The notes beneath the pieces are model-generated. The model searched no databases. It had not been told where the DNA came from and saw only the letters and a list, made by a program, of their open reading frames with translations. A stretch of DNA of 64,000 bases from NCBI GenBank assembly GCA_031274425.1, contig JAISQE010000067.1, positions 1 to 64,000 on the forward strand, in the 5' to 3' direction. Of the stretch, positions 32,829-48,597 are shown piece by piece. The position numbers and the translations under genes were made by a program. The number at the start of each line of letters is the position of its first letter. Position 1 is the stretch's first letter. The stretch comes from Synergistaceae bacterium. Its GTDB lineage: Bacteria > Synergistota > Synergistia > Synergistales > Aminobacteriaceae.

Positions 32829-32836
32829 GTCCTCCC

Positions 32837-34726
32837 CTAGTCCACCGAAATACACGAAACCGGGCAGTTTTTCTTGCAGAGGCCGCAGCGGACGCAGACG
32901 TCGTCGTCGATACGGTGCGGCGTTTTCACGGTTCCCGTGATCGCGCTCACCGGGCAGGCCTTCGTGCAGCGCGTGCACCCGATGCAGCGCGACGCGTCGA
33001 TGGAGTAATGGATCAGCGGCGCGCATACCTTTGCCGGGCATTTTTTGTCGACGATATGAGCGATATACTCGTCCCGGAAGTATTTGAGCGTCGTCTGCAC
33101 GGGGTTCGGCGCGGTTTGCCCCAATCCGCAGAGGGAGCCGTCCTTGATTTGTCCGGCGAGGCTCGACAGTTTGTCGATGTCTTCGAGCACGCCCTCGCCT
33201 CTCGTGATCTTCTCCAGAATTTCGAGCATCCGTTTGGTGCCGATGCGGCAGAACGGGCATTTTCCGCAGGATTCCTTCTGCACGAAGGCCAGGAAGAAGC
33301 GCGCCACATCCACGACGCAGGTGTCCTCGTCCATGACGACCATGCCCCCCGACCCCATGATGGCGCCCGTGGCGTTGATGGACTCGTAGTCCACCGGCGT
33401 GTCCAGAAGATGTTCGGGCACGCAGCCCCCCGACGGGCCTCCAAGCTGCACCGCCTTGAACTTGCGGTCGTTTTCGATGCCCCCCGCGATGTCGTAGATG
33501 ACCTCGCGCAGGGGCATTCCCATCGGCACCTCGGCCAAGCCGCCTTTTTTGATTTTTCCGGCCAAGGCGAAGACCTTCGTTCCCTTACTGCGGCCGTGTC
33601 CGTACTGGTTGAACGCGCTCGCCCCGTGCAGCAGAATCCAGGGCACGTTGGCGTAGGTCTCCACGTTATTGATGTTCGTGGGTTTTTTCCATACCCCGCT
33701 GTTGGCGGGGAAAGGGGGGCGCGGACGCGGCATCCCGCGTTGCCCCTCGATCGAGGCGATCAGCGCCGTTTCCTCGCCGCAGACGAACGCGCCGGCGCCT
33801 TCTTTGACGTAGACGTCGAAGTCGAAATCCGGGTCGCCCAGGATGCTTTTTCCCAAAAACCCTCGTTCCCGCGCTTGGTCCAGAGCGATGTTGACGTGCT
33901 GGATCGCCATGGGGTACTCCGCGCGGCAATAAATCACCCCGTGGGAGGCCCCGACGGAGTAAGCGCCGATGGCCATTCCCTCGATGACGCTGTGGGGGTC
34001 GCTCTCCAGGACGGAGCGGTCCATGAACGCGCCGGGGTCGCCCTCGTCCGCGTTGCAAACCATGTATTTATCGACGCCGTTCGGGTTCGAGGCGTTGGAT
34101 TGACCGGCCTTGGCGTCGCGGGCGAAACGCCACTTCATCCCCGTGGGGAAACCCGCTCCTCCTCTGCCGCGAAGCCCGCTGTCCAGAACCTCTTTGATGG
34201 CGTCGTCGCGAGTCATCTCCTTGACCGCTCTGGAGAGCCCTCTATATCCGTCGCGGGCGATATATTCGTCGATGTTTTTGGGGTCGATGAGTCCGCTGTT
34301 GCGCAGAACGATGCGCACTTGTTTGTCCGCGCGCGGGTTCTCGCTGCCTTTTTCGGTCTCGTTTTCGGCCCCGCCGCCTGGCGAAGCCTCCGATCCCGTC
34401 AGGATCAAGTGTTCTTTCACAATGCTGTTTTTATTCACGTGTTCGTCGACGACGCGGCGCAGGACTTCCACGTCCACTTTGCCGTAGGTGTAGCTTTTTC
34501 CATCCCGTATCACGCTCACCAGAGGCTCCATGTAGCAGTAGCCGATACAGCCCACCTTTTTGATCTCCACGTCCTCGCGGCCGGCCAGGAGCTTTTCCAA
34601 CTCCTCGGCGACAGGAAGCCCGCCCGAGGCGACTCCGCAGCTTGCCAGCCCAATCGTTACCGTCGTCTTGTTCAATGCGACACCCCCGTTTGTTTCAACT
34701 CGTGTATTTGCAAACTCCGCGGACAA
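32837..34726 (-). CDS. NuoF-like NADH-binding flavoprotein subunit (HydB/HndC-like) with extra N-terminal 2Fe-2S and C-terminal 2x[4Fe-4S] domains
   Basis: 629 aa: FMN/NADH-binding core (GGAGFPTGMKW), SLBB, 4Fe-4S, plus ferredoxin motifs CIGCTRCTKACP / CVRCGLCKKNCP. Confidence 0.9.
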   Translation of the reverse strand: MSAEFANTRVETNGGVALNKTTVTIGLASCGVASGGLPVAEELEKLLAGREDVEIKKVGCIGYCYMEPLVSVIRDGKSYTYGKVDVEVLRRVVDEHVNKNSIVKEHLILTGSEASPGGGAENETEKGSENPRADKQVRIVLRNSGLIDPKNIDEYIARDGYRGLSRAVKEMTRDDAIKEVLDSGLRGRGGAGFPTGMKWRFARDAKAGQSNASNPNGVDKYMVCNADEGDPGAFMDRSVLESDPHSVIEGMAIGAYSVGASHGVIYCRAEYPMAIQHVNIALDQARERGFLGKSILGDPDFDFDVYVKEGAGAFVCGEETALIASIEGQRGMPRPRPPFPANSGVWKKPTNINNVETYANVPWILLHGASAFNQYGHGRSKGTKVFALAGKIKKGGLAEVPMGMPLREVIYDIAGGIENDRKFKAVQLGGPSGGCVPEHLLDTPVDYESINATGAIMGSGGMVVMDEDTCVVDVARFFLAFVQKESCGKCPFCRIGTKRMLEILEKITRGEGVLEDIDKLSSLAGQIKDGSLCGLGQTAPNPVQTTLKYFRDEYIAHIVDKKCPAKVCAPLIHYSIDASRCIGCTRCTKACPVSAITGTVKTPHRIDDDVCVRCGLCKKNCPVSCISVD

Positions 34727-34739
34727 TGCGGCCGCCTGG

Positions 34740-35228
34740 CTACCTCTTGCGCAGCTCTTCCAACACCCCTACCGCCTTTTCGGGCGTCAGGCGGCCATGG
34801 ACTTCGGTCCCCACCAGCATCACCGGAGCTAGACTGCAACAGCCCAGGCACGCCACGTATTGCAGGGTGAACATCAAGTCCTCCGTCGTTTCCCCGTCTT
34901 TTATCCCCAAGGATCTTTCGATTTGCTCCGCAACGCGCCCGGAGCCCTGAACATGGCAGGCTGTTCCCCGGCACAGGCGAATGACGTGCTTTCCCTGCGG
35001 CCGAAAACGGAACATCGCGTAGAACGTCGCGACTCCGAAAAGCTCCGCCGCCGGAATCGCAAGCTGCGAACTGACGTAGTTCACGGCCTCCTCGGCTACG
35101 TAACCCACCTCCCTTTGTACGTCCGCCAACAGCGGAATGGCGACCCCCTCTTTACCGCGATACTTTTCGACGATCGGAGCAAGTCGAGCCTCCAGGTCCG
35201 GAATGGCTCCTGCAACAGCCGTGGTCAT
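34740..35228 (-). CDS. NuoE-like thioredoxin-fold 2Fe-2S subunit
   Basis: 162 aa; CRGTACHVQG...CLGCCSLAPV cysteine pattern of NuoE/HndA. Confidence 0.9.
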   Translation of the reverse strand: MTTAVAGAIPDLEARLAPIVEKYRGKEGVAIPLLADVQREVGYVAEEAVNYVSSQLAIPAAELFGVATFYAMFRFRPQGKHVIRLCRGTACHVQGSGRVAEQIERSLGIKDGETTEDLMFTLQYVACLGCCSLAPVMLVGTEVHGRLTPEKAVGVLEELRKR

Positions 35229-35315
35229 TAAACATCAGCCCCTCTATTGTGATATCATTTGCGATGACGGAGAACATTGCTTTAGTGTATCCTCAGGAAG
35301 TCATGAACGCAAGGC

Positions 35316-35336
35316 GACTTTCCGGGTGACTTTCCG
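35316..35336. promoter_or_regulatory. tandem direct repeat GACTTTCCG-GGT-GACTTTCCG in the divergent nuoE-like / V4R intergenic region
   Basis: Two exact 9-mers with a 12-bp period, seen directly in the sequence. Confidence 0.35.
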
Positions 35337-35415
35337 AGCGATCGAGGGTCCGCCGGCGAAAGCGCGAACTTGAAAATGAGATTCTCGAAAAAATCTTGAA
35401 GGAGGTTGTAACGAA

Positions 35416-35949
35416 GTGGAAAATGTATTTTCTGAGGGCATGGGACACAGTTCGTTTTCTTGGGAGAACCTTGGGGACATCAAAGAGGGCCGGGGAGATC
35501 TGGGCGAGGATATGCCGGTGTTGGTGTATCGTCTCATGCAGTACACGATGCTGGACGAGCTGAGCAAGGCTTACGGACCGGAGGTGGCCAACGACCACTT
35601 CCGCAACGCCGGGTTTTTGGCGGGTACCGAGTTTGCCAAAAACGTGTTGGATCTGACGCTGGATTTCAACGCCTTCGTCGCCAATCTGCAAAAAACTTTG
35701 CAAGAACTTAAAGTCGGTATTTTGCGCATGGAGGCCTTCGACGCCGGCACCGGAAATATCGTGTTGACCGTGGGGCAGGACCTGGACTGCAGCGGTCTCC
35801 CGGTGACCAATGAAACCGTCTGCAATTACGACGAGGGGTTCATCGCCGGGATTCTGGAGGCGTACACCGGTAAAAAGTACAACGTGCGCGAGGTCGACTG
35901 CTGGGCGAATGGAGACCGAGTCTGCAGATTCCAAGGCGCTGTTCTGTAG
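35416..35949 (+). CDS. V4R (4-vinyl reductase) domain protein
   Basis: 177 aa; V4R signature near the C-terminus (ETVCNYDEGFIAGILEAYTGKKY) with conserved Cys pair. GTG start with AAGGAGG RBS. Confidence 0.7.
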   Translation: MENVFSEGMGHSSFSWENLGDIKEGRGDLGEDMPVLVYRLMQYTMLDELSKAYGPEVANDHFRNAGFLAGTEFAKNVLDLTLDFNAFVANLQKTLQELKVGILRMEAFDAGTGNIVLTVGQDLDCSGLPVTNETVCNYDEGFIAGILEAYTGKKYNVREVDCWANGDRVCRFQGAVL

Positions 35950-35987
35950 TGTAAAGACGGCGTAAGGACAAGGAGGGAGAACGCATC

Positions 35988-38501
35988 TTGGCGGAGGATC
36001 GCCTCCAGGTTCTCGACGAGCACCTGTTCAAATACCTGCGTGATGTGATGTATGCCCCCTCCAAAGCGAAGTTGGATCTGAGCCTGATTCCAGACGAGCT
36101 GCAGCGGTTTGGCAAAGGGTTGCTGTTTTTTTGCGAGTGTGCGATGGAGACCGCTTCGGTGGCAAAAGCGATGTCGAAGGGGGCTTTGAGCGGCTCCTTC
36201 CCCTCGCGGCAGAACGAGATGGCGTCCCCGCTGAAATCGTTGCACGCTTCTCTGAGTCATTTGACCTGGCAGACGCAACAGGTTGCCCAAGGCGACTACA
36301 GTCAGCGCGTGAATTTTATGGGAGATTTTGCCGACGCTTTCAATACCATGGTCCAACAGCTGGACGAGCGCTGGAAATCCCTGGAGGACCTCTATCATCG
36401 GAACAGCGCGTATATCCGACTCATCCATAAGGTCGGGGGAAATTTGCTGTCTATCGGCGGTTCCGGATACGCCGACGCCGTGGTCAACTCCTTGAAAGAT
36501 CTGTGCGAGACCTTCGATTGCGCGGGTTTGTCGCTGTGGCAGGCGGACAACGAAGGAAAACGCTTCAAGCGCCTGTTCCACTGGCCGACGGACGACGGCG
36601 GTTTTTCGTTCATGATAAAAAAAGACTGGCCGACGGATTGGTTGGAAAAACTGTTCGCCGGAGAATCGATTTCCCTCGTTGGGGGGGTGTCCTGGGAGGG
36701 GCTTTTTCCTCAGGACGTCCATGCGTTTACGGCAATCCCGCTCGTGATCAAGGGCAGTTTCTGGGGGTTTATGGCCATGCCGAGCCGCCAAGAAAGGTCC
36801 TACTCCCAAGAGGAGATGTCGGTCATGACGGCCATCGGAATTTTGGTCGTTTCCGCCATTCTCGAAAAAGAGATGACCGACTCCCTGATCGCCGTCAAGG
36901 ACGCCGCGCTGAAGGCGACGCGCGTAAAAAGCGAGTTTTTGTCTCGAATGAGCCATGAGATGCGCACGCCGATGAACGCCATCATCGGCATGGCCAGTAT
37001 CGCCGAGGGAACGGACGACAAGGAGAAACTGCGTTTCTGCCTTTCCACCATCGGAACGTCGGCGAACCATCTGTTGAATTTGATCAACGACGTGCTCGAC
37101 ATGTCCAAGATCGAGGCCGGAAAACTCGAACTCGACGCCAGCCCTTTCGACATCGAAAAAATGCTGATGAAGGTCTGCAACATTCTCGAGGAAAAGGTGG
37201 ACCAGAAAAACCAGGACCTGCGCGTCGTGATAGAAAAAGGAACGGCTCTGCGCTACGTCGGAGACGAAATGCGCCTCTCGCAGGTGGTGACCAATCTCTT
37301 CGGCAACGCGGTGAAATTCACGCCGGAAAAAGGAAAGATCCTGTTGACCGTCAAGGAGGTGGAACGCCGAGGGGATCGCAGCCGGCTCCGATTTTCCGTT
37401 TCCGACACCGGAATCGGAATGACCCGGGAACAAACGGAACGGCTTTTCGGCGCTTTTCAACAGGCCGACGCCAGCATCGCCAAGCGTTATGGCGGGACGG
37501 GGCTCGGGCTCGCCATTTCGCAGAAGATCGTCGAACAAATGGACGGACGGATAGAGGTCGCGTCAGAGCCCGGTAAGGGAACCACGTTTGTCTTCGAGGT
37601 GGAGATCGAACGCGACCCCCGTCAGGAGAGCGACGCGGTTTTCGGCGGGCCGCCGGGGATTCGGGTGCTGATCGTAGACGCGGACCCCGATTCGTCGGAG
37701 CAGTTCAAGGCCGTTACCGACCGATTCGGCATTGCCTCGGACGTCGTCGCGACCTCCTCGGAGGCGATGCCGCTTCTGGACGCCGCGGTCCAAAACGGAA
37801 GCCCCTACGACGCGATTTTTCTGGATCAGGACCTGCCGGACGAGGACGTGCTCGAAGCCGTCGGCTCGCTCTCCTCCGGGATAGACAAAAATACCGTGGT
37901 CATCGTGACGTCCTTTCTAAAATGGAATAAAATCGAACAGGAGGCAAACCGGCTCGGGGTTCATCGATTTTTGACAAAACCTTTGTTTCCCTCCTCCCTG
38001 CGGGACGTGATCGAAGAACTGATCGAAAGCGGCAAAAGCGGCCCGAAAAGCGAGGCGGGCGAGGACGCCCCGGAGGGTTCCGAGGATCAGGCGATTGAAA
38101 ATCAGGCGATCGATCTTTCCGGAAAACGAATTCTCTTGACCGACGACGTGGAGATCAATCGCCTGATCGTCAGAGAGCTGTTGGAGGACACGAACGTCAG
38201 TATCGACGAGGCGGAAAACGGCGAAAAGGCCTTGTTCCTATTCGAACAATCGGCGGAGAATTACTACGACATGGTGTTCATGGATATTCAGATGCCCGGG
38301 ATCGACGGTTATGAAACGGCTCGACGCATTCGGGCATTGACGCGTTCGGACGCCAAAAGCGTGCTTATCATAGCATTGACGGCGAACGCCTACAAAGAAG
38401 ACGCCGAAAAAGCGCTGGAAGCGGGGATGGATGGGCACCTTGCGAAGCCAATCGATATCGACGAAGTACGGAATTTTCTCGCGGAACGATTGAAAAAGTG
38501 A
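35988..38501 (+). CDS. soluble hybrid sensor histidine kinase (HAMP-like, GAF, HisKA, HATPase_c, two receiver domains)
   Basis: H-box [14 protein letters not shown]; N/G boxes; two C-terminal REC domains (second has [10 protein letters not shown]...[13 protein letters not shown]). No TM segments. Confidence 0.9.
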
Positions 38502-38551
38502 TGACTGCCCTATCGAGTAAAATCTGGGATTTTTGAGAGGAGGTTTTACGG

Positions 38552-39937
38552 GTGAACGAAAAAACGCTTTTGTCGCTGGCTTATGGAGCGGCGTTCACGG
38601 GGGGCGAACGCGCCGTCGCCTTTTCCGAACTGGAGAGCTTGGCGCCGCGATTCAAAGACGGCGACGCCTGGTTGCGTAAAAACGCCTTGGAGGGCAAGGA
38701 AGGTTTTGGATGGATCGGCCTGCCCAAACGCAACGTAGACGACGTCCAAACCTTGTCGCGCTGGCTGGCGACGCGGGATTCGATCGTGCAAGTGGGAATC
38801 GGCGGCTCCGCCCTGGGGAATCTGATGCTTCACGGTGCGCTTCTGCCTCCGTATTGGAACGAGCGCTCGAAGGCAAAGCGAGGGGGGCCCCGCTTCTTTA
38901 TGTCCGACAACGTGGACCCCGTCGACAACCGCGCTATATGGGAGCTGATCGACCCCGAGAGCACCGCCGTGATCGTCGTCAGCAAGTCCGGCAGCACGGC
39001 GGAGACGGCCTCGAATTTCTTGTTCTTCTGGGAAAAGCTTAGGGATACCCTGGGCGAGGCCGCGGCGCGGGAGCGCGTCGTCGTCGTGACGGACAAAGAA
39101 AAGGGCATTCTGCGCCCCTTCGTCGACGAGACGGGCTGCAAAAGTTTGATCCTTCCCGAGGACGTGGGAGGTCGCTTTTCCGTTCTGTCCTGCGTGGGGC
39201 TGCTTTCGGCGTGGGCGTTGGGCATCGACTGCAAGGCGCTTCTCTCCGGAGCCGCCGCTGTGGACGAGTCTATCGCGAAAGCCGGATCGGTCTTGGAAAA
39301 TCCCGCTTGGATCCTGGCGGGGCTTTCTTATCTTCACATGAAAAAAGGACGTAACGTCAACGTCCTGATGCCCTACGTCGACGCGCTGGAGCGTTTTGGC
39401 GAGTGGTTCGCTCAGCTATGGGGCGAGTCCATAGGGAAGGACGGCCAGGGCTCGACGCCGGTGCGGGCGTTAGGGGCCGTCGACCAGCATTCGCAAATTC
39501 AGCTTTACACGTCGGGGCCGGACGACAAGCTCTACACGATCCTGACCGTGACCCAGGGACAAAAAGACATCGCTTTGCCCGCGGCCCCGGAAAAAGCCTT
39601 CGAAAAACTTTCGTATCTTTATGGGAAATCTATGGACGAACTGCGCAACTTCGAGGCCTTCGCCACCGCAGCCGCGCTGTCCAAAGAAGGGCGGCCCGTG
39701 ACGACGCTTTCGATTCCCGTTCTGGACGCTTACCACCTGGGCGGGTTGATCCAGTTTTACGAGTACGTCACGGGGATGATGGGGCATCTGATGCAGGTGA
39801 ACCCCTTCGACCAACCCGGAGTGGAGCAGGGCAAAAACTACACCTACGGTTTGATGGGACGGAGCGGTTTCGAGAACCAAGCGCGGGAGGTGCGGGCCCT
39901 TGCTTCCAAAATCAACGAGCGCGCGGTGACGTTCTAG
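38552..39937 (+). CDS. pgi: glucose-6-phosphate isomerase
   Basis: 461 aa bacterial-type PGI; QVGIGGSALGN motif. Confidence 0.85.
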   Translation: MNEKTLLSLAYGAAFTGGERAVAFSELESLAPRFKDGDAWLRKNALEGKEGFGWIGLPKRNVDDVQTLSRWLATRDSIVQVGIGGSALGNLMLHGALLPPYWNERSKAKRGGPRFFMSDNVDPVDNRAIWELIDPESTAVIVVSKSGSTAETASNFLFFWEKLRDTLGEAAARERVVVVTDKEKGILRPFVDETGCKSLILPEDVGGRFSVLSCVGLLSAWALGIDCKALLSGAAAVDESIAKAGSVLENPAWILAGLSYLHMKKGRNVNVLMPYVDALERFGEWFAQLWGESIGKDGQGSTPVRALGAVDQHSQIQLYTSGPDDKLYTILTVTQGQKDIALPAAPEKAFEKLSYLYGKSMDELRNFEAFATAAALSKEGRPVTTLSIPVLDAYHLGGLIQFYEYVTGMMGHLMQVNPFDQPGVEQGKNYTYGLMGRSGFENQAREVRALASKINERAVTF

Positions 39938-39982
39938 TTCCAATTTAAAGCTGACAAAGCCGATGAAGAAGGTGCGAACGCG

Positions 39983-40357
39983 GTGTTGAGGGTGATCGTC
40001 GGAGGACAGATGGAGAAACAACGCATTGCCGACTTGGTGAAAAAACTGGGGGGCGAGGGCGTCAGCGTTCAGGTCAAAAGCGATATCGAGGCGGCGATGC
40101 TGATAAAACGGGGCGAAGCCGACTACTACCTTGGATGTTGCGCCACGGGAGGCGGAGGATCCCTCGCGGGGGCGATCGCGATTTTGGGTTACGGCCGGTG
40201 CGTTTCCGTTTCCATGCCGGGCATCGCGCCGGAAAAGAACAAAGTCGAGCAGGCCGTGAACGAGGGAAAGCAGGCGTTCGGGTTTACCGACAATCACGTG
40301 GACGCGGCTGTCGGCATGATCATGGAGGCTATTTCAAACAGGCAATCCGCGCAATGA
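39983..40357 (+). CDS. DUF2620 protein (YhfU-like)
   Basis: 124 aa; YYLGCCATGGGGSLAGAIAILG motif as in E. coli YhfU. Confidence 0.7.
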   Translation: MLRVIVGGQMEKQRIADLVKKLGGEGVSVQVKSDIEAAMLIKRGEADYYLGCCATGGGGSLAGAIAILGYGRCVSVSMPGIAPEKNKVEQAVNEGKQAFGFTDNHVDAAVGMIMEAISNRQSAQ

Positions 40358-41484
40358 ACCGGGTCGACACGATAGAGACCCATCCCCTCGAAAGCCTGAG
40401 CGTAGCGGAGGCGAAGGCCATGCAGTTTCGGCTGGTAGACGCGGCGGCGCGGCGGCTGAGCGGAACGGAGGCGCTTTCGACCGGCGATCTGGGGGTTGCC
40501 GCGCGCCACGGTCGCCCCGAAACGACGGAGAAGATTGAGGGCGTTGTCGCGGATTTTTTCGGAGCGGAGGCCGCCGCGCTGGTGCGCGGAGCGGGCAGCG
40601 GCGCCGTTCGCTTTGCCGTGTGGGCCGTGGCGCGGGCGGGCGACGGCGTGTTGACCCACGACGCCCCCATTTACGACACCACAAAACTTTTGTTCGATTC
40701 CATGGGCTTGAAGGTGGGTTCTTGCGATTTCAACTCCTTGGAAAAGACGGCGGAAACCCTTCGGAATGGGAATTTCGCTTTGGCTTTGGCGCAGCACGCC
40801 CGCCAAAAGATAGAAGACCGATACGCTCTGGCCGACGTGATTTCCGTTTTAAAACGGAACGCGCCTGAAATGCCCGTCGTGACGGACGACAACTACGCGG
40901 CGTTGAAGGTCCCTCGCATCGGCATCGAACTGGGCGCGGACCTGTCGACCTTTTCGGCTTTCAAGCTCCTGGGGCCCGAGGGGGTGGGGTGCGTCGCCGG
41001 CAGAGCGGATCTGGTGGAACGCATCCATAAAATGAACTACTCGGGAGGCGGCCAGGTGCAGGGGCATGAGGCCATGGAGGTTCTGCGAGGGATGATTTGC
41101 GCGCCTGTGCTTCTGGCGCTGCAGGCCGAGGTGGTGGAGGAACTCCACGCCCGGTTGAACGCCGCGGAGATCCAGGGCGTCAAACGCGCTTTTATCGCCA
41201 ATGCCCAATCCAAAGTATTGCTCGTCGAACTGGAGCGCCCGTTTGCCCGCAAGGTTTTGGAGCGGGCGGAGCCTCTGGGGGCCGCGCCCTGGCCCGTGGG
41301 GGCGGAGTCGAAATATGAGTTTGCCCCGATGTTTTACCGAGTGTCGGGAACCTTTCTCGCGTCGAACCCCTGGCTGGCGGAGCGCATGATTCGCATCAAT
41401 CCGATGAGGGCGGGGGCCGATACGGTCCTCGGAATATTGGAAAGAGCGATAGCGGCCGCCTCGCCCGGCCGGGGATTTGCATAG
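40354..41484 (+). CDS. YhfS-like PLP-dependent enzyme
   Basis: Starts MNRVDTIETHPLESL with ATGA overlap to the DUF2620 stop; about 376 aa, size and order match E. coli yhfS. Confidence 0.6.
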   Translation: MNRVDTIETHPLESLSVAEAKAMQFRLVDAAARRLSGTEALSTGDLGVAARHGRPETTEKIEGVVADFFGAEAAALVRGAGSGAVRFAVWAVARAGDGVLTHDAPIYDTTKLLFDSMGLKVGSCDFNSLEKTAETLRNGNFALALAQHARQKIEDRYALADVISVLKRNAPEMPVVTDDNYAALKVPRIGIELGADLSTFSAFKLLGPEGVGCVAGRADLVERIHKMNYSGGGQVQGHEAMEVLRGMICAPVLLALQAEVVEELHARLNAAEIQGVKRAFIANAQSKVLLVELERPFARKVLERAEPLGAAPWPVGAESKYEFAPMFYRVSGTFLASNPWLAERMIRINPMRAGADTVLGILERAIAAASPGRGFA

Positions 41485-41495
41485 GGGGATTCTGT

Positions 41496-42653
41496 GTGTT
41501 TTTAGGAAAAGTGAGAGCGCGTAATCCCAAACTTTTGGACAAGGCGTTGGAACTCCACGCGTCAGGGCAAATTCGCCCCGATACCTGGGTTATCGATTTG
41601 GATTCGCTGTTGAGCAACGCTTCTTCGATCCTGAATGAAGCGAGAAAATACGGCGTCGAGCTTTACTATATGACGAAGCAATTCGGCAGAAATCCCCTCA
41701 TCGCGCGGAAATTGCAGGATCTGGGCTACGCGGGAGCCGTTGCGGTCGACCACAAAGAGGCGTCCGTTCTGCTAAAAAATGGGCTGCGCTTGGGGCACGT
41801 GGGGCATCTCGCGCAAATTCCGGCCGCCGACGTCCCGAAAATCGTGGCGGCGCGTCCTGAAATCGTCACCGTTTACTCTTACGAGAAGGCCGAGCACCTG
41901 TCCGCGGAGACGTTGAAAGCGGGACGGGTTCAACCCATCATGCTCCGAATGTGGGATGAAAAAAACCCCGTGTTCTTGGGGCAGGAGGCGGGCTACAGCC
42001 TCACCCAGCTGCAGGCGTTGCTCTGGAGGCTCGACGCGTTGAAGGGAGTCCGCGTCGCCGGCGTCACGGCTTTCCCTTGCTTTGTTTTCGACCCGGACGT
42101 GGGGGACATCGTCCCCACGAAAAACGCGGAGCTGCTGGGCCGCGCCAAAGAATGGCTGAAACGGAATTGGGCGGACTCCTCCTCTTTGCAGATCAACATG
42201 CCTTCCGCGACCTGCCTGAGGACGTTGCCGCTCATCGCCGAGAGAGGAGGAACCCATGCCGAGCCGGGACATGGGTTGACGGGCACGACGCCGCTGCACG
42301 CGGCGACGGACCAGCCGGAGGTTCCCGCCATGGTGTACGTCACGGAGGTGTCGCACCATTGGAAGAGGTCCTCCATGGTGTACGGCGGGGGCTTTTACCG
42401 GCGGGGACACCTGCGTAACGCCTTCGTGGCGGGGAAAGCGACGATGGTCTATCCCTTGGATCCTTTGACGATCGATTATCATTTCGAGATCGATGGACAA
42501 TTTCCCGTGGGAACGCCGGTGTTGATGGCTTTTAGAGCGCAGGCTTTCGTAACCCGCAGCGATATTGCCGTGGTACGGGGAATCCACGCGAAAAAAGGCA
42601 AAAGCAAGCTCTTGGGCATTTTCGATCCGCTGGGGGGGAAAATCGCATCGTGA
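41496..42653 (+). CDS. YhfX-like putative amino-acid racemase (alanine racemase N-domain fold)
   Basis: 385 aa; MFLGKVRARNPKLLDKALELHASG... similar to YhfX. Confidence 0.6.
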   Translation: MFLGKVRARNPKLLDKALELHASGQIRPDTWVIDLDSLLSNASSILNEARKYGVELYYMTKQFGRNPLIARKLQDLGYAGAVAVDHKEASVLLKNGLRLGHVGHLAQIPAADVPKIVAARPEIVTVYSYEKAEHLSAETLKAGRVQPIMLRMWDEKNPVFLGQEAGYSLTQLQALLWRLDALKGVRVAGVTAFPCFVFDPDVGDIVPTKNAELLGRAKEWLKRNWADSSSLQINMPSATCLRTLPLIAERGGTHAEPGHGLTGTTPLHAATDQPEVPAMVYVTEVSHHWKRSSMVYGGGFYRRGHLRNAFVAGKATMVYPLDPLTIDYHFEIDGQFPVGTPVLMAFRAQAFVTRSDIAVVRGIHAKKGKSKLLGIFDPLGGKIAS

Positions 42654-43930
42654 AAAGATTTGTCGTCGTCGTTCTCGACGGATTGGGGATCGGGGCTATG
42701 GAGGACGTGCCCGCCGTGCGCCCCGAGGACATGGGAGCCTGCACTCTGGGCTCGATTCTGGAGTCCCGCCCCGATCTGCGCCTGCCGAACCTGGAGCGCC
42801 TGGGTCTCATGAACGCGCTGGGAAGGGAAAGCGCCCGTATGCGCTTTTCCGCGTCCGGGATCTGGGGGAGGGGATCTTTGATGCACTGGGGCGCGGACAC
42901 CTTCTGGGGACACCAGGAGATCCTGGGGACCCTGCCCAAACGCCCCCGGTGCGAGCCGTTCTCGACCGTGGCGGAGAAGATCGAAAGCCTGTTGCTGGGG
43001 AAGGGCTATAAGGTCCGCCGCGTGGGATTGGGCGGGCTCCGTCCCCCTGGGGTTGAGGTTGGAGTTGGAGTTGAGGTTGAACCTTTACAAAATCTTTATC
43101 TGCTGCAGGTGGAGGACGCCGTGACCTTGGGCGACAACCTGGAGGCCGATCCTGGACAAAACTACAACGTAACGGCGGTTTTGGACAGAATTTCTTTCGA
43201 CGAAGCGCTTCGAATCGGGCGCTACGTGCGGGAAAGCGTGGAGGTCTCCCGCGTGATCTGTTTCGGGAACCCGTCCGTGAACATGGATTGCCTTTTGAGC
43301 GCCATGGAAGTGAGAGACGCGCGGTATATGGGGGTCAGCTCCGCGCGAAGCGGGGTATACGGCGAAGGATATCGGTGCATCCACATGGGCTACGGCGTGG
43401 ACTCCGCTCTTCAGATCCCGGCGTTGCTGGCGGAGCGCGGCGTCCCCGTCCTTTTGTTCGGCAAGGTCGCGGATATCGTGGAAAATCCGCGGGGGGAGTC
43501 CGTCTCCTGGGTCGACACGGAAGAGGTCCTCTCCATGACGATGGGCGCGCTGACGGCGCTGGAGAGGGGATTTGTCTGCACCAACGTTCAGGAGACGGAC
43601 CTGGCCGGGCACATGCAGAGCGCCGAGCGGTACGCGGAGGCTCTGGAAAAAGCGGACCCTTGGATCGGGCGCTTGATGGAGCGCTTGCGCGACGACGACG
43701 TTTTGTTGGTGATGGCGGACCACGGCAACGACCCCAACATAGGGCATACCCACCATACCCGGGAAAAAGTTCCGATTTTGGTTTACTCCCCCCGCGTTGC
43801 GCGGCCGGACGGTCTTGAACTGGGCGAACGCGACACGCTTTCCGACGTGGGGGCCACCGTGGCCGCCTACTTCGGCGCTCGCGCGCCGGAGAACCCCCAC
43901 GCGAAACCGATAAAAGAGCTGCTCATATAG
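42650..43930 (+). CDS. YhfW-like phosphopentomutase-family metalloenzyme
   Basis: MKRFVVVVLDGLGIGAMEDVP..., alkaline-phosphatase-superfamily mutase motifs; 4-nt overlap with the previous gene. Confidence 0.65.
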   Translation: MKRFVVVVLDGLGIGAMEDVPAVRPEDMGACTLGSILESRPDLRLPNLERLGLMNALGRESARMRFSASGIWGRGSLMHWGADTFWGHQEILGTLPKRPRCEPFSTVAEKIESLLLGKGYKVRRVGLGGLRPPGVEVGVGVEVEPLQNLYLLQVEDAVTLGDNLEADPGQNYNVTAVLDRISFDEALRIGRYVRESVEVSRVICFGNPSVNMDCLLSAMEVRDARYMGVSSARSGVYGEGYRCIHMGYGVDSALQIPALLAERGVPVLLFGKVADIVENPRGESVSWVDTEEVLSMTMGALTALERGFVCTNVQETDLAGHMQSAERYAEALEKADPWIGRLMERLRDDDVLLVMADHGNDPNIGHTHHTREKVPILVYSPRVARPDGLELGERDTLSDVGATVAAYFGARAPENPHAKPIKELLI

Positions 43931-43933
43931 ATA

Positions 43934-43972
43934 GACTTATTGATAGAGAGACTTATTATTGATTATTGATAT
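43934..43972. promoter_or_regulatory. TTATTGAT direct-repeat cluster immediately upstream of the TetR gene (candidate operator)
   Basis: GACTTATTGATAGAGAGACTTATTATTGATTATTGATATC; three TTATTGAT copies within 40 bp, ending 12 bp before the tetR ATG. Confidence 0.4.
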
Positions 43973-43984
43973 CGAGGGACCAGG

Positions 43985-44617
43985 ATGCCGACTCAGACTT
44001 TTTACAACCTGCCCGCCGAAAAGCGGGAAAGAATATTACAGGCCGCCATCGAGGAATTCGGCCGGCGCAACGTGCAGGAAGCGAATCTTTCGAACATCGT
44101 GAGCGCGGCGAATATCTCTCGCGGTAGCCTGTATCAGTATTTTTCGAACAAAGAAGACATGTACGTTTACATCTTCGACACCTTGCGGGCTCGCCGCGCC
44201 GAGTACGTCAAACCCGCGTTCTCGCTCTACAAAAAAGAGCCGTTCCTCAATTTCTTCGAGGCGTTTTATCTGCGCGACAGCGAGTTTTTGCTGAGAAACC
44301 CCAGCCATATCGAGCTGGGCAAGCAACTGTACAGCCACGCTCACGGCGTCTCGCGCGGTTTGATTCAGCGCGCGCAAAGTCACTACAAGGAGACTTTTCT
44401 TTTGGCCATCGAGTTCGACAAGGAGCGCGGCATCATCTCTCTCGAGATCGATTCCTCGGCGCTGGCGGATTTATGCGTCCACTTCGTCACCGACATTTTC
44501 ATCTTTCAAAGCGTGATGAGCCAACTCTCCATGTCCAATATCGAGCGACACGCGCGCCAAACGCTTTACATCCTCCAAAACGGGACAAATCCCAAGCGGA
44601 TGCCCGAGGGGTTATAA
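43985..44617 (+). CDS. TetR/AcrR family transcriptional regulator
   Basis: N-terminal HTH (EANLSNIVSAANISRGSLYQYFSNKEDMY). Confidence 0.85.
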   Translation: MPTQTFYNLPAEKRERILQAAIEEFGRRNVQEANLSNIVSAANISRGSLYQYFSNKEDMYVYIFDTLRARRAEYVKPAFSLYKKEPFLNFFEAFYLRDSEFLLRNPSHIELGKQLYSHAHGVSRGLIQRAQSHYKETFLLAIEFDKERGIISLEIDSSALADLCVHFVTDIFIFQSVMSQLSMSNIERHARQTLYILQNGTNPKRMPEGL

Positions 44618-45343
44618 CCGCATCCCGCCGTTGACGCTCAAAACATGCCCCGTGACGTAGCTGCTCTCGTCGCTGGCTAGGAACAGGGCGGCGCGCGCTA
44701 TCTCCTCCGGCTGGCCCAGACGGCCCAGCATGGTCAAGGCGGCGAACTTGTCCAGGAGGTCCTGCGGCACGGTCTTCATCATGTCCGTCATGACATAACC
44801 CGGCGCTATGGCGTTTGAGCGCACGGCGGCGCCTTTGCGCGCGAACTCCTTCGCCCAGGTCTTCGTCATGCCGATGACGCCCGCCTTGGTGGCCGCGTAG
44901 TTGGTCTGCCCGATGTTGCCGAATTCGCCCACCACGGAGGAGATGTTGATGATGGAGCCGTAGCCCTTTTCCATCATGAGGGGGCCGATGAGACGCGCCA
45001 TGTTGAAGACGCCTTTCAAGTTCACGTCGACGACCACGTTCCACAGTTCGTCGGTCATTTTGTGGATCAGGGCGTCGCGCGTGATGCCGGCGTTGTTCAC
45101 CAGCACGTCGATCCTGCCGTGTTTGGCGGCCAGCTCATCCACTACCTGCTTGCAATTGCCCACGTCGGTCACGTTCAGCTTGACGTACCCGACGCCGGGG
45201 GCCTCGTAGGACGGCGGGTTCATATCGGCGGCTATCGCGACCGCCCCCTCGGCGGCGAACAGTTTGCAGCATTCCCCTCCGATGCCGGCCGCGCCCCCTG
45301 TCACCAGCGCAATTTTCCCTTCCAGACGTTTTGACATAACCAT
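44612..45343 (-). CDS. SDR family oxidoreductase (FabG-like 3-oxoacyl reductase)
   Basis: TGGAAGIG Rossmann motif, NNAG, YxxxK catalytic tetrad. Confidence 0.85.
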   Translation of the reverse strand: MVMSKRLEGKIALVTGGAAGIGGECCKLFAAEGAVAIAADMNPPSYEAPGVGYVKLNVTDVGNCKQVVDELAAKHGRIDVLVNNAGITRDALIHKMTDELWNVVVDVNLKGVFNMARLIGPLMMEKGYGSIINISSVVGEFGNIGQTNYAATKAGVIGMTKTWAKEFARKGAAVRSNAIAPGYVMTDMMKTVPQDLLDKFAALTMLGRLGQPEEIARAALFLASDESSYVTGHVLSVNGGMRL

Positions 45344-45368
45344 GACCTCCTAATATATAATTAATAAA

Positions 45369-46187
45369 TTATGATACAACGCGGATGTCGAGGTCGCTGC
45401 CGACAAATCCTAGCACCAGCGAAACGAACTCCGCGGGTTTTTCGTACATCACCGCGTGCCCGGCGTTTTGTACGGTCACGTGGCTCGCGTTGGGGATCGC
45501 TTCCGCCAGCTCCTTCTGTTGGTACGGAGGCGTGACGAAATCGTATTCGGACGAGATGACGAGCGTGGGCGAGGCGATGGCGCTCAGGTTCCCACGCTCG
45601 TCGTGGGTTTCGGCGCTGCGGATCAGCCGTCCGAAAGCGTCGTAGACCTCTGGAGTGAAATGCGTCACGAACAGATCCTCCCGCGCCGCGACCCACGTGT
45701 AATGTTTTTCATAAAACCGCGGGGAGTAGACGATGGGGATGCAGGTTTTGAAGAACTGGCGGCCGTCGTGGCTCCGACAGGCGTCGTCCCAAGAGCGGCC
45801 GATGTCCCGCAGCCACTTGGACGTATAGGCTGCCGTATTCGATAAAATCAGCTTTTTCACCTTATCCGGACAGCGGGCTGCCGCCTTCATGGCTACCTCG
45901 CCGCCGTAGCTGACGCCCATCAGGTTGACCGACTCCAGTTTTATTTCCTCAAGGAGCGCCAGTACCATATCCGCCTGCGTGGAGAGCGAATATTCGCCAT
46001 CCATTTTCCCGCTTTTGCCCTGATCGAGGAAATCCACTAGAATCAGGCGATTTTTCGCCGCAAAACTGGGGACGAACGCCTCCCAGGAGGCGCAGGACAT
46101 GAAAATCCCGTTCAGGACCAACAGGGGCTCGCCCTTACCCATGTCCTCGTAATACACCCGGCGCTTGCCGAACGCGAACGTCGCCAT
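45369..46187 (-). CDS. alpha/beta hydrolase
   Basis: Start MATFAFGKRRVYYEDMGKGEPLLVLNG; nucleophile elbow GVSYGG. Upstream ORF extension is artefact. Confidence 0.75.
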   Translation of the reverse strand: MATFAFGKRRVYYEDMGKGEPLLVLNGIFMSCASWEAFVPSFAAKNRLILVDFLDQGKSGKMDGEYSLSTQADMVLALLEEIKLESVNLMGVSYGGEVAMKAAARCPDKVKKLILSNTAAYTSKWLRDIGRSWDDACRSHDGRQFFKTCIPIVYSPRFYEKHYTWVAAREDLFVTHFTPEVYDAFGRLIRSAETHDERGNLSAIASPTLVISSEYDFVTPPYQQKELAEAIPNASHVTVQNAGHAVMYEKPAEFVSLVLGFVGSDLDIRVVS

Positions 46188-46198
46188 GTGCCCCTCGC

Positions 46199-47521
46199 CT
46201 AAAGCCAATATTGCAGGTTTTTCGCGGCGGCCCGCAGCCCCTCCCGAAACCTTGGGTGGGCGATGGCGATCAAACGTTCGGCGCGCTCCCGCAGCGTGGT
46301 CCCCCGCAAATTCACGGCGCCGTGTTCGGTCACGACCCAATCCACGTCGTTACGGGAAAGCGAGACCGCCGCGCCTTGCCGGAGCAGCGGCACGATCTTC
46401 GAGACCTCTTCTCTTTCGCCGTTTTCCGCGTTTTTCACCATGGCTGTGCTATAGAGCGCGATGACGCTTCGCCCGTTTTTGCTTCTCTGGGCGCCAACGG
46501 CGGTATCGCCTTGGCCGCCGGTCCCGGAGATCTGCATCGGCCCTACGCTTTCGCTGCAACACTGGCCGGTCAGGTCTATTTCCACCGACGTATTGATGCT
46601 CACCTGGTTGTCGTTGCCGGCGATGGCGTAGGGATCGTTGACCCAACTGCCGCGGCTCACCCAAATGTCCGGGTTGTCGTTCATGAACTCGTACATCTCC
46701 TGGCTGCCCAACGCGAAAGCGCACACCACCTTGCCCACGTTCATCTGCTTTTTGCTGCCGCTCACCACGCCTTTTCTCATCAGGTTCATGATGCCGGTGG
46801 TCATCATCTCGGTGTGAATGCCCAGGTCCTTCTTTTCGGCCAAAAACTCGCACACGGCGTTGGGGATGCCGCCGATCCCCACTTGAATGCAGTCGCCGTC
46901 GTCGATGAGTCCGGCAATATGTCTGCCGATGTCTCGGTCTTTTTCGTTGGGCGGCACGTCGGGAATGGTGGGAAGAAAATAGTCGCACTCGACCACGTGG
47001 TCCACGTCGTCCCATTCGAGATAGTTGTCGCCGAAGCTGTGGGGCGCGTGAGGGGTGATCTCCAGGATGACGATATCGGCCAGCTTCGCGATCTCCTCCT
47101 CGTAGACGTTGCCGCAGGAAAAACGAACGCGGCCGTTTTCCTCCGGCATCGAGGCCGAGCAGACGAAAACGTTCGCTTTTTTATGGTAGTTACGCTTGGA
47201 GCCCGCAAAATGCAGATGGTTGGGAATGAAAGAGACCCTGCCGGTCTTGTGCAGCTTGCGCAAAATGGGAGAGTAGAACCAGGAGTCCAGCTTAAAAGCC
47301 GTTTCCAGATATTTTTCCGAAAGGTACTCGCCGGAGACGGTGGAAAGGCAACTGGTGACGGTTACGTCCTTTACGCGGTCGGCGATGGTGTGGAGGCGGC
47401 TCAGGAATTCGACCGGCTCCGCGCCCGCCATGCCCACCGTGATGTTGTCGCCGGATTTCACCATGTTCAGCGCCTGCTCCGTCGTAATTTTTTTCGAACT
47501 ATAGTCAAACATCGGAGTCAT
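46199..47521 (-). CDS. acetyl-CoA hydrolase/transferase family protein (4-hydroxybutyrate CoA-transferase-like)
   Basis: About 440 aa; family I CoA-transferase fold motifs. Start placed at MTPMFDY. Confidence 0.75.
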   Translation of the reverse strand: MTPMFDYSSKKITTEQALNMVKSGDNITVGMAGAEPVEFLSRLHTIADRVKDVTVTSCLSTVSGEYLSEKYLETAFKLDSWFYSPILRKLHKTGRVSFIPNHLHFAGSKRNYHKKANVFVCSASMPEENGRVRFSCGNVYEEEIAKLADIVILEITPHAPHSFGDNYLEWDDVDHVVECDYFLPTIPDVPPNEKDRDIGRHIAGLIDDGDCIQVGIGGIPNAVCEFLAEKKDLGIHTEMMTTGIMNLMRKGVVSGSKKQMNVGKVVCAFALGSQEMYEFMNDNPDIWVSRGSWVNDPYAIAGNDNQVSINTSVEIDLTGQCCSESVGPMQISGTGGQGDTAVGAQRSKNGRSVIALYSTAMVKNAENGEREEVSKIVPLLRQGAAVSLSRNDVDWVVTEHGAVNLRGTTLRERAERLIAIAHPRFREGLRAAAKNLQYWL

Positions 47522-48597
47522 CCCCTCTTGCCCCAGCGCACGCAGGTGGAGGCCCATACATATCCGATGCCCGCCGCAATCATGGCGACCACCGTGCCGT
47601 CTTCGATTTTGCCCTGCTCGATGCCCAGCGCTAGGGAGAGGATCTGATCGATCTGCCCCATGTGCCCGTAGTCCTCCAAATAAAGGCTCTGCTCGGGCGC
47701 GAGCCCCAGTTCCGCTACCATAGACAGGTGCTGGCTTCGCTTGAAATGCAGAATGGCGAGATAACCGATGTCCTTTCGGGAGAGCCCTCCGCTCTTGCGC
47801 AGGCTTTCGTCGATGCAGCGGTACCAGTTCGATATGCTCACTTCGTTCAATCGGGTCTTCATGTGTCCGGGGTTCATCACGCGCAAAGACCTGTAGCCCT
47901 CCTCCACGTTGTCGGGAGTGAAGGGTTTCGCGATGCCGCCGATCTCCACGCCGGCGTCCCGGGCCAGAGACCCGTCGGCCATGACGTGGGTGCCCAACAC
48001 CAGGTTTTTGTCCATGCCTTTTTGTAAAATCAACGCGCCGCCGCCCGCCGACAGGTTGTACATCATGCTCATGTCTTTATCGGTGTAGTCCACAAAATCG
48101 CCGTTGCGGTAGCCTCCGGCGATCAGGACGGTCTTGATTTCGTCGTCCGCGTTCAACATGTCTTTCGCCATTTTGATGGCGGTGCAGGTGGTGCAGCATC
48201 GGTTCGCCACATCGATGCCCCAGGCGTTCGCCGCGCCGATCTCGTCCTGGATGTAGAGCGCCGAGGTGGTGAGCGGATATTCCTTCCACTCCTCGCCCAT
48301 GCAAAGGATCACGTCGATTTCTTTCGGGTCCAGCCCCGTGCGGTTCAGCGCGTCCTGCGCGGCGCGCGCGCCCATTTTCTGAGTGCCGTCGTTCGGCCCC
48401 GGTATCGTTTTCCGCACGACGCCCAGTTTCTCCACCACGGCGTCTTCGCTCCACACGCCCTTCGTCGCTTCCGATATCTCCTTCGCGGTCATGACCCGCG
48501 AAGGCAAATACAGTCCGTAACCCAGAATGCCGACATTTTCGTTTTTCACATTTTCGTTCTTCACCCTACAAATCCCCTTTCCCGCAAATTCATACAA
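47518..48597 (-). CDS. 3-oxoacyl-ACP synthase III-like (KAS III / FabH-like) condensing enzyme
   Basis: Active-site Cys context NRCCTTCTAIKMA, C-terminal His/Asn region. N-terminal region contains a 15-bp tandem duplication (VKNENVKNEN); true start likely a GTG within it. Confidence 0.75.
   Translation of the reverse strand: MYEFAGKGICRVKNENVKNENVGILGYGLYLPSRVMTAKEISEATKGVWSEDAVVEKLGVVRKTIPGPNDGTQKMGARAAQDALNRTGLDPKEIDVILCMGEEWKEYPLTTSALYIQDEIGAANAWGIDVANRCCTTCTAIKMAKDMLNADDEIKTVLIAGGYRNGDFVDYTDKDMSMMYNLSAGGGALILQKGMDKNLVLGTHVMADGSLARDAGVEIGGIAKPFTPDNVEEGYRSLRVMNPGHMKTRLNEVSISNWYRCIDESLRKSGGLSRKDIGYLAILHFKRSQHLSMVAELGLAPEQSLYLEDYGHMGQIDQILSLALGIEQGKIEDGTVVAMIAAGIGYVWASTCVRWGKRG

Follow-up and report, generated by a model that had tools for sequence, protein, structure and literature searches.

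This article concerns a small cluster of genes, yhfU, yhfS, yhfX and yhfW, that lies directly behind the glucose-6-phosphate isomerase gene pgi in a Synergistaceae bacterium, on a stretch of 64,000 nucleotides (nt) that I will call the window (contig JAISQE010000067.1 of assembly GCA_031274425.1, positions 1 to 64,000). All five genes are co-directional and tightly spaced (Table 1), and the four-gene set next to pgi, which an initial annotation of this DNA had proposed, was confirmed by the open reading frames (ORFs), by profile searches and by comparison with Escherichia coli K-12. The gene order, the overlaps and the likely co-transcription as one operon hold as well when the junctions are read from the sequence: yhfU and yhfS share an ATGA overlap (40354-40357), 11 nt separate yhfS from yhfX, and yhfX runs into yhfW through a GTGA (42650-42653) in which a GTG start lies over a TGA stop. 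The sole error of the earlier description is that it gave ATGA for both overlaps, which is right at 40354 and wrong at 42650. Between pgi and yhfU lies a spacer of 45 nt with a GAAGGTG ribosome-binding site inside it, and yhfUSXW is probably transcribed together with pgi. The deposited yhfU annotation (gene call P0001, 115 amino acids (aa)) begins at the ATG at 40010 and is probably 9 codons short, since the family profile, the invariant Gly7/Gly8 and a confidently modelled first strand require the GTG at 39983 as the start (124 aa). Exact-match look-ups of P0001 and of the window YhfX yielded no record. An Rfam scan at gathering thresholds and a tRNA scan, both of the whole window, returned nothing.

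Table 1. Features of the yhf locus, in positions of the window
Feature	Position	Strand	Description
pgi (PGI-family gene)	38552-39937	+	Housekeeping glucose-6-phosphate isomerase; upstream neighbour of the yhf genes (ORF list)
yhfU (DUF2620)	39983-40357	+	Small protein of predicted RpiB/LacAB fold with invariant Cys53-x-Thr55-Gly-rich loop
yhfS	40354-41484	+	Fold-type I pyridoxal phosphate (PLP) enzyme, Cys/Met-metabolism-like group, YhfS-like C-terminal domain
yhfX	41496-42653	+	Fold-type III PLP enzyme, alanine-racemase-like barrel, YhfX-like C-terminal domain
yhfW	42650-43930	+	Phosphopentomutase-like metallo-phosphomutase, alkaline-phosphatase superfamily
AT-rich spacer 3' of yhfW	43927-43958		16-nt tandem direct repeat (repeat search)

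The initial annotation had also placed the four products in the Yhf group rather than in well-characterised families such as DeoB or Alr, and profile searches agree, with YhfU, YhfS, YhfX and a YhfW-type mutase occurring together and all above curated cut-offs. YhfU is a DUF2620 protein (Pfam PF10941, 146 bits); YhfS has the YhfS-like_C domain (PF22475, 148 bits) and matches PF01053 (36.4 bits against a cut-off of 27); YhfX has the YhfX-like_C domain (PF21279, 100 bits) and the Ala_racemase_N domain (PF01168, 47.7 bits); and YhfW scores 526 bits against the cut-off of 254 for the YhfW-type NCBIfam model NF009049 and 139 bits for Pfam Metalloenzyme. By BLASTP they are identical to their E. coli K-12 counterparts at 33% (YhfU), 51% (YhfS), 43% (YhfX) and 49% (YhfW) of positions, each over the full length, and the best PDB matches of the two PLP enzymes are the E. 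coli proteins themselves (4J8L for YhfS, E = 9e-112; 4KBX for YhfX, E = 6e-106). Better-known identities were tried and rejected: YhfW misses both DeoB models (NF003766 at 159.7 bits against 256, TIGR01696 at 144.7 against 341.2), YhfS misses the equivalog level of the characterised Cys-Met lyases and synthases (best model TIGR01328, 49 bits against a cut-off of 550), and YhfX as a genuine alanine racemase (alr/dadX) matches no NCBIfam model and ends in YhfX-like_C, not in Ala_racemase_C.

YhfW nevertheless resembles DeoB phosphopentomutase in part (E 2e-33, in two stretches), the two having in common the alkaline-phosphatase-superfamily metalloenzyme group, and its D10, T84 (within GADT), D317/H321, D357/H358 and H369 pair with DSVG, KDT, DxxxxGH, ADHGNDP and HTRE of a Bacillus phosphopentomutase, so that the metal ligands and the Thr nucleophile are present in the alignment; with the exception of T84 these residues are conserved in at least 95% of 78 YhfW sequences. 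Proteins of the NF009049 type are not known to have an assigned substrate. A paper of January 2026 still lists yhfW as an uncharacterised putative mutase. This fits the statement of the initial annotation that the Yhf cluster is functionally unassigned, which stands: the searchable literature holds no assigned function and no functional study of Yhf proteins, of DUF2620 or of the phosphotriesterase homology protein. The cluster type itself is already recognised, with Pfam families named after YhfS, YhfT and YhfX, an NCBIfam model for YhfZ and two PDB entries.

How such clusters look elsewhere was surveyed by a one-genome-per-species scan in which 407 genomes proved to contain a relative of YhfX; genes in the 80 top-ranking loci were identified by tblastn, with proteins of E. 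coli, the window and Synergistaceae as queries, and components were counted in the 53 complete genome loci that extend at least 8 kb on both sides. YhfT and YhfU are present in all 53 and always adjacent, YhfW and Php in 52 each, the PRD protein YhfY in 51, YhfZ in 49, YhfS in 48 and an amidase-signature-like protein of about 360 aa (A365) in 23. The E. coli K-12 operon yhfZ-yhfY-yhfX-yhfW-php-yhfU-yhfT-yhfS (b3376-b3383, where 'yhfV' is php) has four orthologues in common with the window and adjoins the fructoselysine frl operon, whereas the window cluster lies behind pgi instead. The lack of yhfT and php, which the initial annotation had pointed out, is borne out and extends to the regulators, with tblastn using the E. 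coli proteins detecting no yhfT, php, yhfY or yhfZ in the 64-kb window; there is no YhfT (PF10797) beside YhfU, no Php in the cluster, and neither the GntR-type YhfZ nor YhfY with its PRD domain. The window is the only examined locus without YhfT, Php and both regulators, and the absence of yhfT and php is exceptional.

The Synergistaceae themselves suggest an explanation for this absence. In Firmicutes the usual order is Z Y U T [A365] php S X W, and in Enterobacteria Z Y X W php U T S; the order U S X W of the window is the Firmicute/Synergistaceae order minus T, A365 and php. The closest relatives, the loci L002, L003 and L089, have YhfU proteins 79-85% identical to that of the window (L002 85%; L089 79%, with 75% for S, 73% for X and 67% for W) and the same relative order U..S-X-W, but pgi is not adjacent and they additionally encode a PRD protein, two YhfT copies and the amidase-signature-like protein of about 365 aa, arranged as Y-U-T-A365-S-X-W and then the second T; in L002 and L089, whose contigs reach that far, php follows (Y U T A365 S X W T php). 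Because these sisters hold the full cluster, the window cluster is best understood as descended from the full operon by reduction, and of the "compact, uncharacterised metabolic module" of the initial annotation the compact four genes stand, while the module is better described as what is left of Y-U-T-A365-S-X-W-T-php. A second reduced variant, Y U A365 S without T, X and W, is found in L005 (4558-11207) and L091 (117-4528), and the lineage shows several different reductions of the Yhf cluster. This second variant is preceded by a large membrane protein without a Pfam match and has, in L005, a pyrroline-5-carboxylate-reductase-like gene behind it. The A365 proteins (355-387 aa; L002 11751-12848, L006 11696-12769, L089 2067-3230) have as their sole database match an amidase-signature region (Pfam E about 1e-5, below the cut-off) and appear to be an unannotated family tied to the Yhf operon.

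A cluster that has been cut down in this way might simply be decaying, its genes lost piecemeal and the remaining four no longer serving a pathway, with lesions that have not yet accumulated. The relatives do offer a stepwise series, from the full set (L002/L089) through U-S-X-W (the window) and X alone (L092) to nothing (L113); in L092, DNA colinear with positions 29745 to 39935 of the window is joined directly to 41483-42643, which is yhfX, with yhfU, yhfS and yhfW missing. The transporter, hydrolase and regulators that the window lacks are present in 49-53 of the 53 other loci, and at alignment columns where at least 95% of about 80 homologues agree, YhfX and YhfW show 3 deviations each (of 74 and 86), which is towards the top of what family members show, beside 1 of 89 for YhfS and 0 of 18 for YhfU. 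These deviations are conservative changes or lie near the C-terminus, however, the four reading frames are intact, and the residues predicted to be catalytic are kept in all four proteins (among them K204 in YhfS, K61 in YhfX, D10/T84/D317/H321/D357/H358/H369 in YhfW). The 4-nt start/stop overlaps also suggest that translational coupling has been maintained. Between the window and the lone yhfX of L092 the ratio of nonsynonymous to synonymous substitution rates (dN/dS) is 0.106 at a dS of 0.89, and neighbouring core genes compared with L092 give 0.042 (pgi), 0.056 (NuoF-like), 0.123 (oxidoreductase) and 0.174 (kinase), a range similar to that of yhfX; against L089 the values for U, S, X and W are 0.05-0.14. 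Thus yhfX is under purifying selection and, by the comparison with L092, is maintained even when alone, and because its dN/dS lies in the core-gene range and the sites are intact I consider the decaying remnant unlikely. A pseudogene reading was rejected on the intact frames, the conserved residues and the dN/dS.

The initial annotation gave weight to the adjacency of pgi as a hint to the pathway, and this weight is not supported. The window Pgi matches PF00342 with 125.6 bits and its best NCBIfam glucose-6-phosphate isomerase model with 293 bits, under the cut-off of 443, as expected for a divergent phylum. The protein is identical to one annotated in a Synergistaceae metagenome-assembled genome, on a contig of 66.9 kb, and its orthologues, named glucose-6-phosphate isomerase, are found at 50-92% identity across Synergistota; it is the ordinary housekeeping copy of the phylum in a conserved place. 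Five relatives were fetched via Pgi (L092, L093, L095, L113 and L114), and in all but L114, where the upstream genes differ, pgi sits beside divergently transcribed NuoE/NuoF-like genes, followed in L092, L093 and L095, whose contigs reach that far, by the gene of an iron-sulfur oxidoreductase of about 1000 aa; often a V4R protein and a hybrid histidine kinase stand directly before pgi. What lies behind pgi is another matter: yhfX alone in L092 (Pgi 92% identical to the window), an unrelated dehydratase and a TRAP transporter in L113 (also 92%), htpG and liv genes in L093 (83%), and a peptidase in L095 (81%). Because the gene after pgi differs in each relative, pgi is seen as a housekeeping gene with a variable slot behind it, and since no pgi homologue lies within 8-10 kb of the yhf cluster in any of the 53 complete YhfX loci of other genomes, the adjacency is lineage-specific and positional, arising by chance in that slot. 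The removal of this false lead is one contribution of the present analysis.

It could still be argued that the four enzymes and Pgi together supply glycolysis with hexose-6-phosphate made from an amino-sugar phosphate or a glycated amino acid. In favour of this, pgi and the yhf genes run in one direction across a spacer of 45 nt in which no terminator is predicted, although such a scan is uninformative for this phylum; pgi and yhfX stay together in L092; yhfW is followed in three other lineages by nagB, the gene of an enzyme that yields fructose-6-phosphate; and the E. coli yhf operon has the frl operon for a neighbour. Against this stand the complete lack of pgi near the other clusters, the conserved position of a housekeeping pgi with unrelated genes behind it in relatives, and the slower evolution of pgi compared with yhfX (dN/dS 0.042 vs 0.106), as expected for an independent core gene, and I therefore find a pathway coupled to pgi improbable. 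Taken further, U-S-X-W plus pgi would be a self-sufficient cytoplasmic route from an amino-sugar phosphate or an Amadori/Heyns-type glycated amino acid to hexose-6-phosphate, working without uptake through YhfT, an idea to which I assign a small chance. If it were true, this would make DUF2620 a sugar-phosphate isomerase of a new, minimal, Cys-dependent kind and not a partner in transport, and one could read from the natural "deletion series" of the Synergistaceae (full, U-S-X-W, Y-U-A365-S, X alone) which of the Yhf enzymes can act alone.

The smallest of the four proteins, YhfU, gives one clue to the chemistry. It shows an RpiB-type alpha/beta fold, and a profile alignment with E. coli RpiB (hhalign, E 0.004) puts its C53 and T55, in the loop after strand 3, on the catalytic C66 and T68; Cys53 and Thr55 are invariant across 46 sequences. 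The placement of DUF2620 in the RpiB/LacAB fold with the catalytic Cys-x-Thr kept is a contribution of this analysis, and YhfU could be either a minimal isomerase or a phosphocysteine carrier. By sequence the family stays apart, as a DUF2620 profile search of 1.84 billion representatives found a small family of 178 clusters at E<=0.001 without reaching RpiB, YhfU has no Pfam LacAB_rpiB match, and a PDB RpiB is reached by sequence only at E 0.82. The same representative library holds fusions of DUF2620 with a full PTE/Php domain (P0207, 413 aa), with a PRD domain (P0247, 267 aa) and with the start of YhfT (P0257, 294 aa), each of them a single cluster and either real or a gene-call artefact; pointing in three differing directions, they were given no weight. 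A weak match links YhfU to the "SFCGS" family of EF_0830/AHA_3911 (Pfam E 0.004, TIGR03577 E 0.0013, both below curated cut-offs), whose cluster comprises a PRD regulator, membrane proteins, a fold-I PLP enzyme and an amidohydrolase. In the D-glucosaminate (dga) pathway of Salmonella, which depends on the phosphotransferase system (PTS), a fold-I PLP enzyme deaminates a phosphorylated amino-sugar acid; the window cluster may resemble dga in this, but it has neither an aldolase nor a SelA-like enzyme.

The two PLP enzymes can also be read as acting on amino acids. YhfX shares with alanine racemase the N-terminal barrel with its PLP lysine, but not Ala_racemase_C with the catalytic Tyr; Lys61, the PLP lysine, is present in 85 of 85 family members and Cys195 in 78 of 85 (92%), which makes them the candidate catalytic pair. 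Ornithine racemase OrnR is a fold-III enzyme that likewise does without the usual Tyr and uses Lys36 and Cys164, with the Cys as acid/base (December 2025, PMC13397332); the spacing of this pair is 128 residues compared with 134 for Lys61-Cys195 of YhfX, and Cys195 may be the counterpart of Cys164. In the corresponding pathway a free or modified amino acid would be the substrate, with YhfX serving as a racemase of the ornithine/lysine type and YhfS as an aminotransferase or lyase, and this would suit the amino-acid-fermenting Synergistaceae, the conserved Cys in the fold-III barrel of YhfX, the survival of yhfX alone in L092 and the pyrroline-5-carboxylate-reductase-like gene next to U-A365-S in L005. 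In the PDB search the nearest characterised kin of YhfS, in which the PLP motif S201-x-x-K204 and D178 are present, are methionine gamma-lyases (E about 1e-9), and this again fits amino acids. However, the active site of a sugar-phosphate mutase is complete in YhfW, the fold of YhfU is that of sugar-phosphate isomerases, the PRD, PTS and nagB neighbours described below point to carbohydrates, and an alphaproteobacterial YhfX homologue lies within a sugar-type ATP-binding cassette (ABC) operon with a ROK regulator, all of which leaves me with little confidence in an amino-acid pathway. The latter homologue (L115, Ruegeria sp. TM1040 megaplasmid NC_008043.1, 262091-279266) is 36% identical to YhfX, is annotated as "alanine racemase" and is accompanied by an M20 hydrolase, with no other Yhf genes there, and similar genes occur on plasmids of Aminobacter, Rhizobium and Nitratireductor. 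A protein search of a plasmid collection aimed at OrnR yielded only YhfX-family genes, and a metagenome scan with the window YhfX found relatives of at most 47% identity and no further close kin of this lineage.

Neighbouring genes in other genomes add to the carbohydrate side. Enzyme I adjoins the Yhf cluster in seven loci, namely six genome loci of three phyla (Thermotogae, Treponema, Paenibacillus) and the metagenome contig L107; Treponema clusters have a Mga/PRD regulator, EIIA_2, PTS_IIB and EIIC-GAT at their flanks, and in L038, L039 and L043 PTS genes flank it both up- and downstream. The glucosamine-6-phosphate deaminase gene nagB, scoring above NCBIfam cut-offs, stands immediately behind yhfW in three genomes, of Thermotogae, Clostridium and Acidaminococcales (L016 12420-15149, L017 12590-13324 and L073 12255-13001), and the Pfam tally of 81 co-directional neighbours is led by an ABC permease family, PTS_IIB, PTS_EIIC, Fe-ADH and glucosamine-isomerase. 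For YhfT itself an identity as EIIC is unsupported, as a profile of YhfT could be related neither to a PTS EIIC-GAT protein nor to any sequence of the PDB. The initial annotation had hinted at a phosphorylated amino-sugar or amino-acid derivative as substrate; of these, the amino-sugar phosphate gains independent, weak support from the PTS and nagB neighbours and from the RpiB-like fold of DUF2620, and is unproven. When the YhfU fold, YhfX and the PTS, nagB and ABC neighbours are taken together, they weakly suggest a PTS-linked, sugar-like, amine-bearing and phosphorylated substrate for the Yhf pathway.

My preferred reading, which I hold with a confidence just above even, is that yhfUSXW is a trimmed but still selected set of Yhf enzymes that lies behind pgi by position and not by function. 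The ancestor in this Synergistaceae lineage would have held the full set of YhfY, YhfU, YhfT, the amidase-like protein, YhfS, YhfX, YhfW, a second YhfT and Php, from which the window genome would have kept only the four soluble enzymes, packed behind pgi. As for what these enzymes might do, a step-by-step scheme can be extrapolated from the chemistry of their families, and the chance that it is right in its particulars is low at best: on a sugar-like, phosphorylated, amine-bearing metabolite, YhfW, as an Mn-type phosphomutase with a Thr nucleophile, would shift the phosphate; YhfU, with its RpiB fold and Cys53/Thr55 loop, would isomerise the sugar phosphate or carry a phospho-cysteine; YhfX, as a fold-III PLP enzyme with Lys61/Cys195, would invert the amine-bearing carbon; and YhfS, as a fold-I PLP enzyme, would take off the amino group by transamination or elimination. 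With YhfT, Php, YhfY and YhfZ missing, the substrate would therefore have to arise within the cell or be taken up by a transporter encoded elsewhere.

A number of observations weigh against this reading, some of which concern YhfU. At the positions of RpiB Asp9/His10 and His99/Asn100 it has Gln9/Met10 and Ala/Val instead, and, being about 25 residues shorter than the RpiB/LacAB isomerases, it ends before the Arg133 helix and is without the phosphate site Arg133/His134/Arg137 (in E. coli RpiB these residues bind sugar and phosphate). With the fold and the catalytic loop of RpiB but none of the other family features, YhfU is not a canonical isomerase. It may instead partner YhfT, to which it is adjacent in every other complete locus, and would hence be roleless here. 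This leads to the possibility, which I regard as tentative but worth keeping in view, that YhfU is a non-enzymatic, PTS EIIB-like phosphocysteine carrier for the membrane protein YhfT and is an orphan in the window; the invariable adjacency of the two elsewhere favours a carrier, but the retention of YhfU without YhfT in three Synergistaceae loci favours an enzyme, and the active-site Cys of Cys-type PTS EIIB, which lies in the loop after strand 1, has no counterpart at that place in YhfU. Further points against the trimmed, selected enzyme set are that the pgi-yhfX adjacency has been retained in two lineages (the window and L092) over a dS of about 0.9, as a functional link to pgi might require; that the view of this genome spans about 64 kb and yhfT, php or PTS genes could be elsewhere; that the promoter and terminator scan of the window gave matches at chance level and is uninformative for this phylum; and that the nagB and PTS adjacencies occur in a minority of loci and may represent a few transferred blocks.

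The interest of the locus lies in the fact that the Yhf operon is a conserved multi-enzyme cluster of E. coli K-12 that has no assigned function despite two solved protein structures, and the window provides a natural minimal version of it, four soluble enzymes under selection without the transporter, the hydrolase and the regulators. Since this minimal set exists here and other subsets occur in the sister loci, the comparison suggests that the Yhf pathway is modular. Together with the DUF2620 fold and the PTS and nagB neighbours, the minimal version would narrow the candidate substrates to phosphorylated amino-sugar-like compounds. The question of Yhf function becomes somewhat more testable through these natural subsets and through the fold, PTS and nagB leads, although the locus itself is a modest variant that will not surprise a specialist.

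The surroundings of the cluster deserve a brief description. Immediately after yhfW, the AT-rich spacer carries the tandem direct repeat ATAGATAGACTTATT and ATAGAGAGACTTATT, 16 nt apart, along with repeated TTATTGAT motifs, and a sigma-70-like site is found at 43932-43959 (in a promoter scan that performs at chance level); a TetR gene follows at 43985-44617. The spacer may be the promoter or operator of this TetR gene and mark the 3' end of the yhf unit. Upstream, the minus strand between 29745 and 35228 encodes the NuoE-like and NuoF-like proteins and the oxidoreductase of about 1000 aa, of iron-sulfur/GltD/molybdopterin type, that are kept beside pgi in L092, L093 and L095; the mechanically called ORF at 29745-33260 (1171 aa) overlaps the NuoF-like ORF, and the relatives indicate a protein of about 1003 aa that starts near 32756. 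The V4R-domain protein and the hybrid histidine kinase/response regulator occupy 35416-38501, directly upstream of pgi; the kinase, with GAF, HisKA and two receiver domains, is the fastest-evolving local gene (dN/dS 0.17), and the pair is kept in L092 and L113 and replaced by a methyl-accepting chemotaxis protein in L095. Downstream, the block at 43985-48597 comprises the TetR gene and then, on the opposite strand, genes for a short-chain dehydrogenase/reductase, an alpha/beta hydrolase, an acetyl-CoA hydrolase/transferase-family protein and a KAS-III-like protein, and it separates the yhf genes from a Liv-type ABC transporter syntenic with the one found after pgi-htpG in L093.

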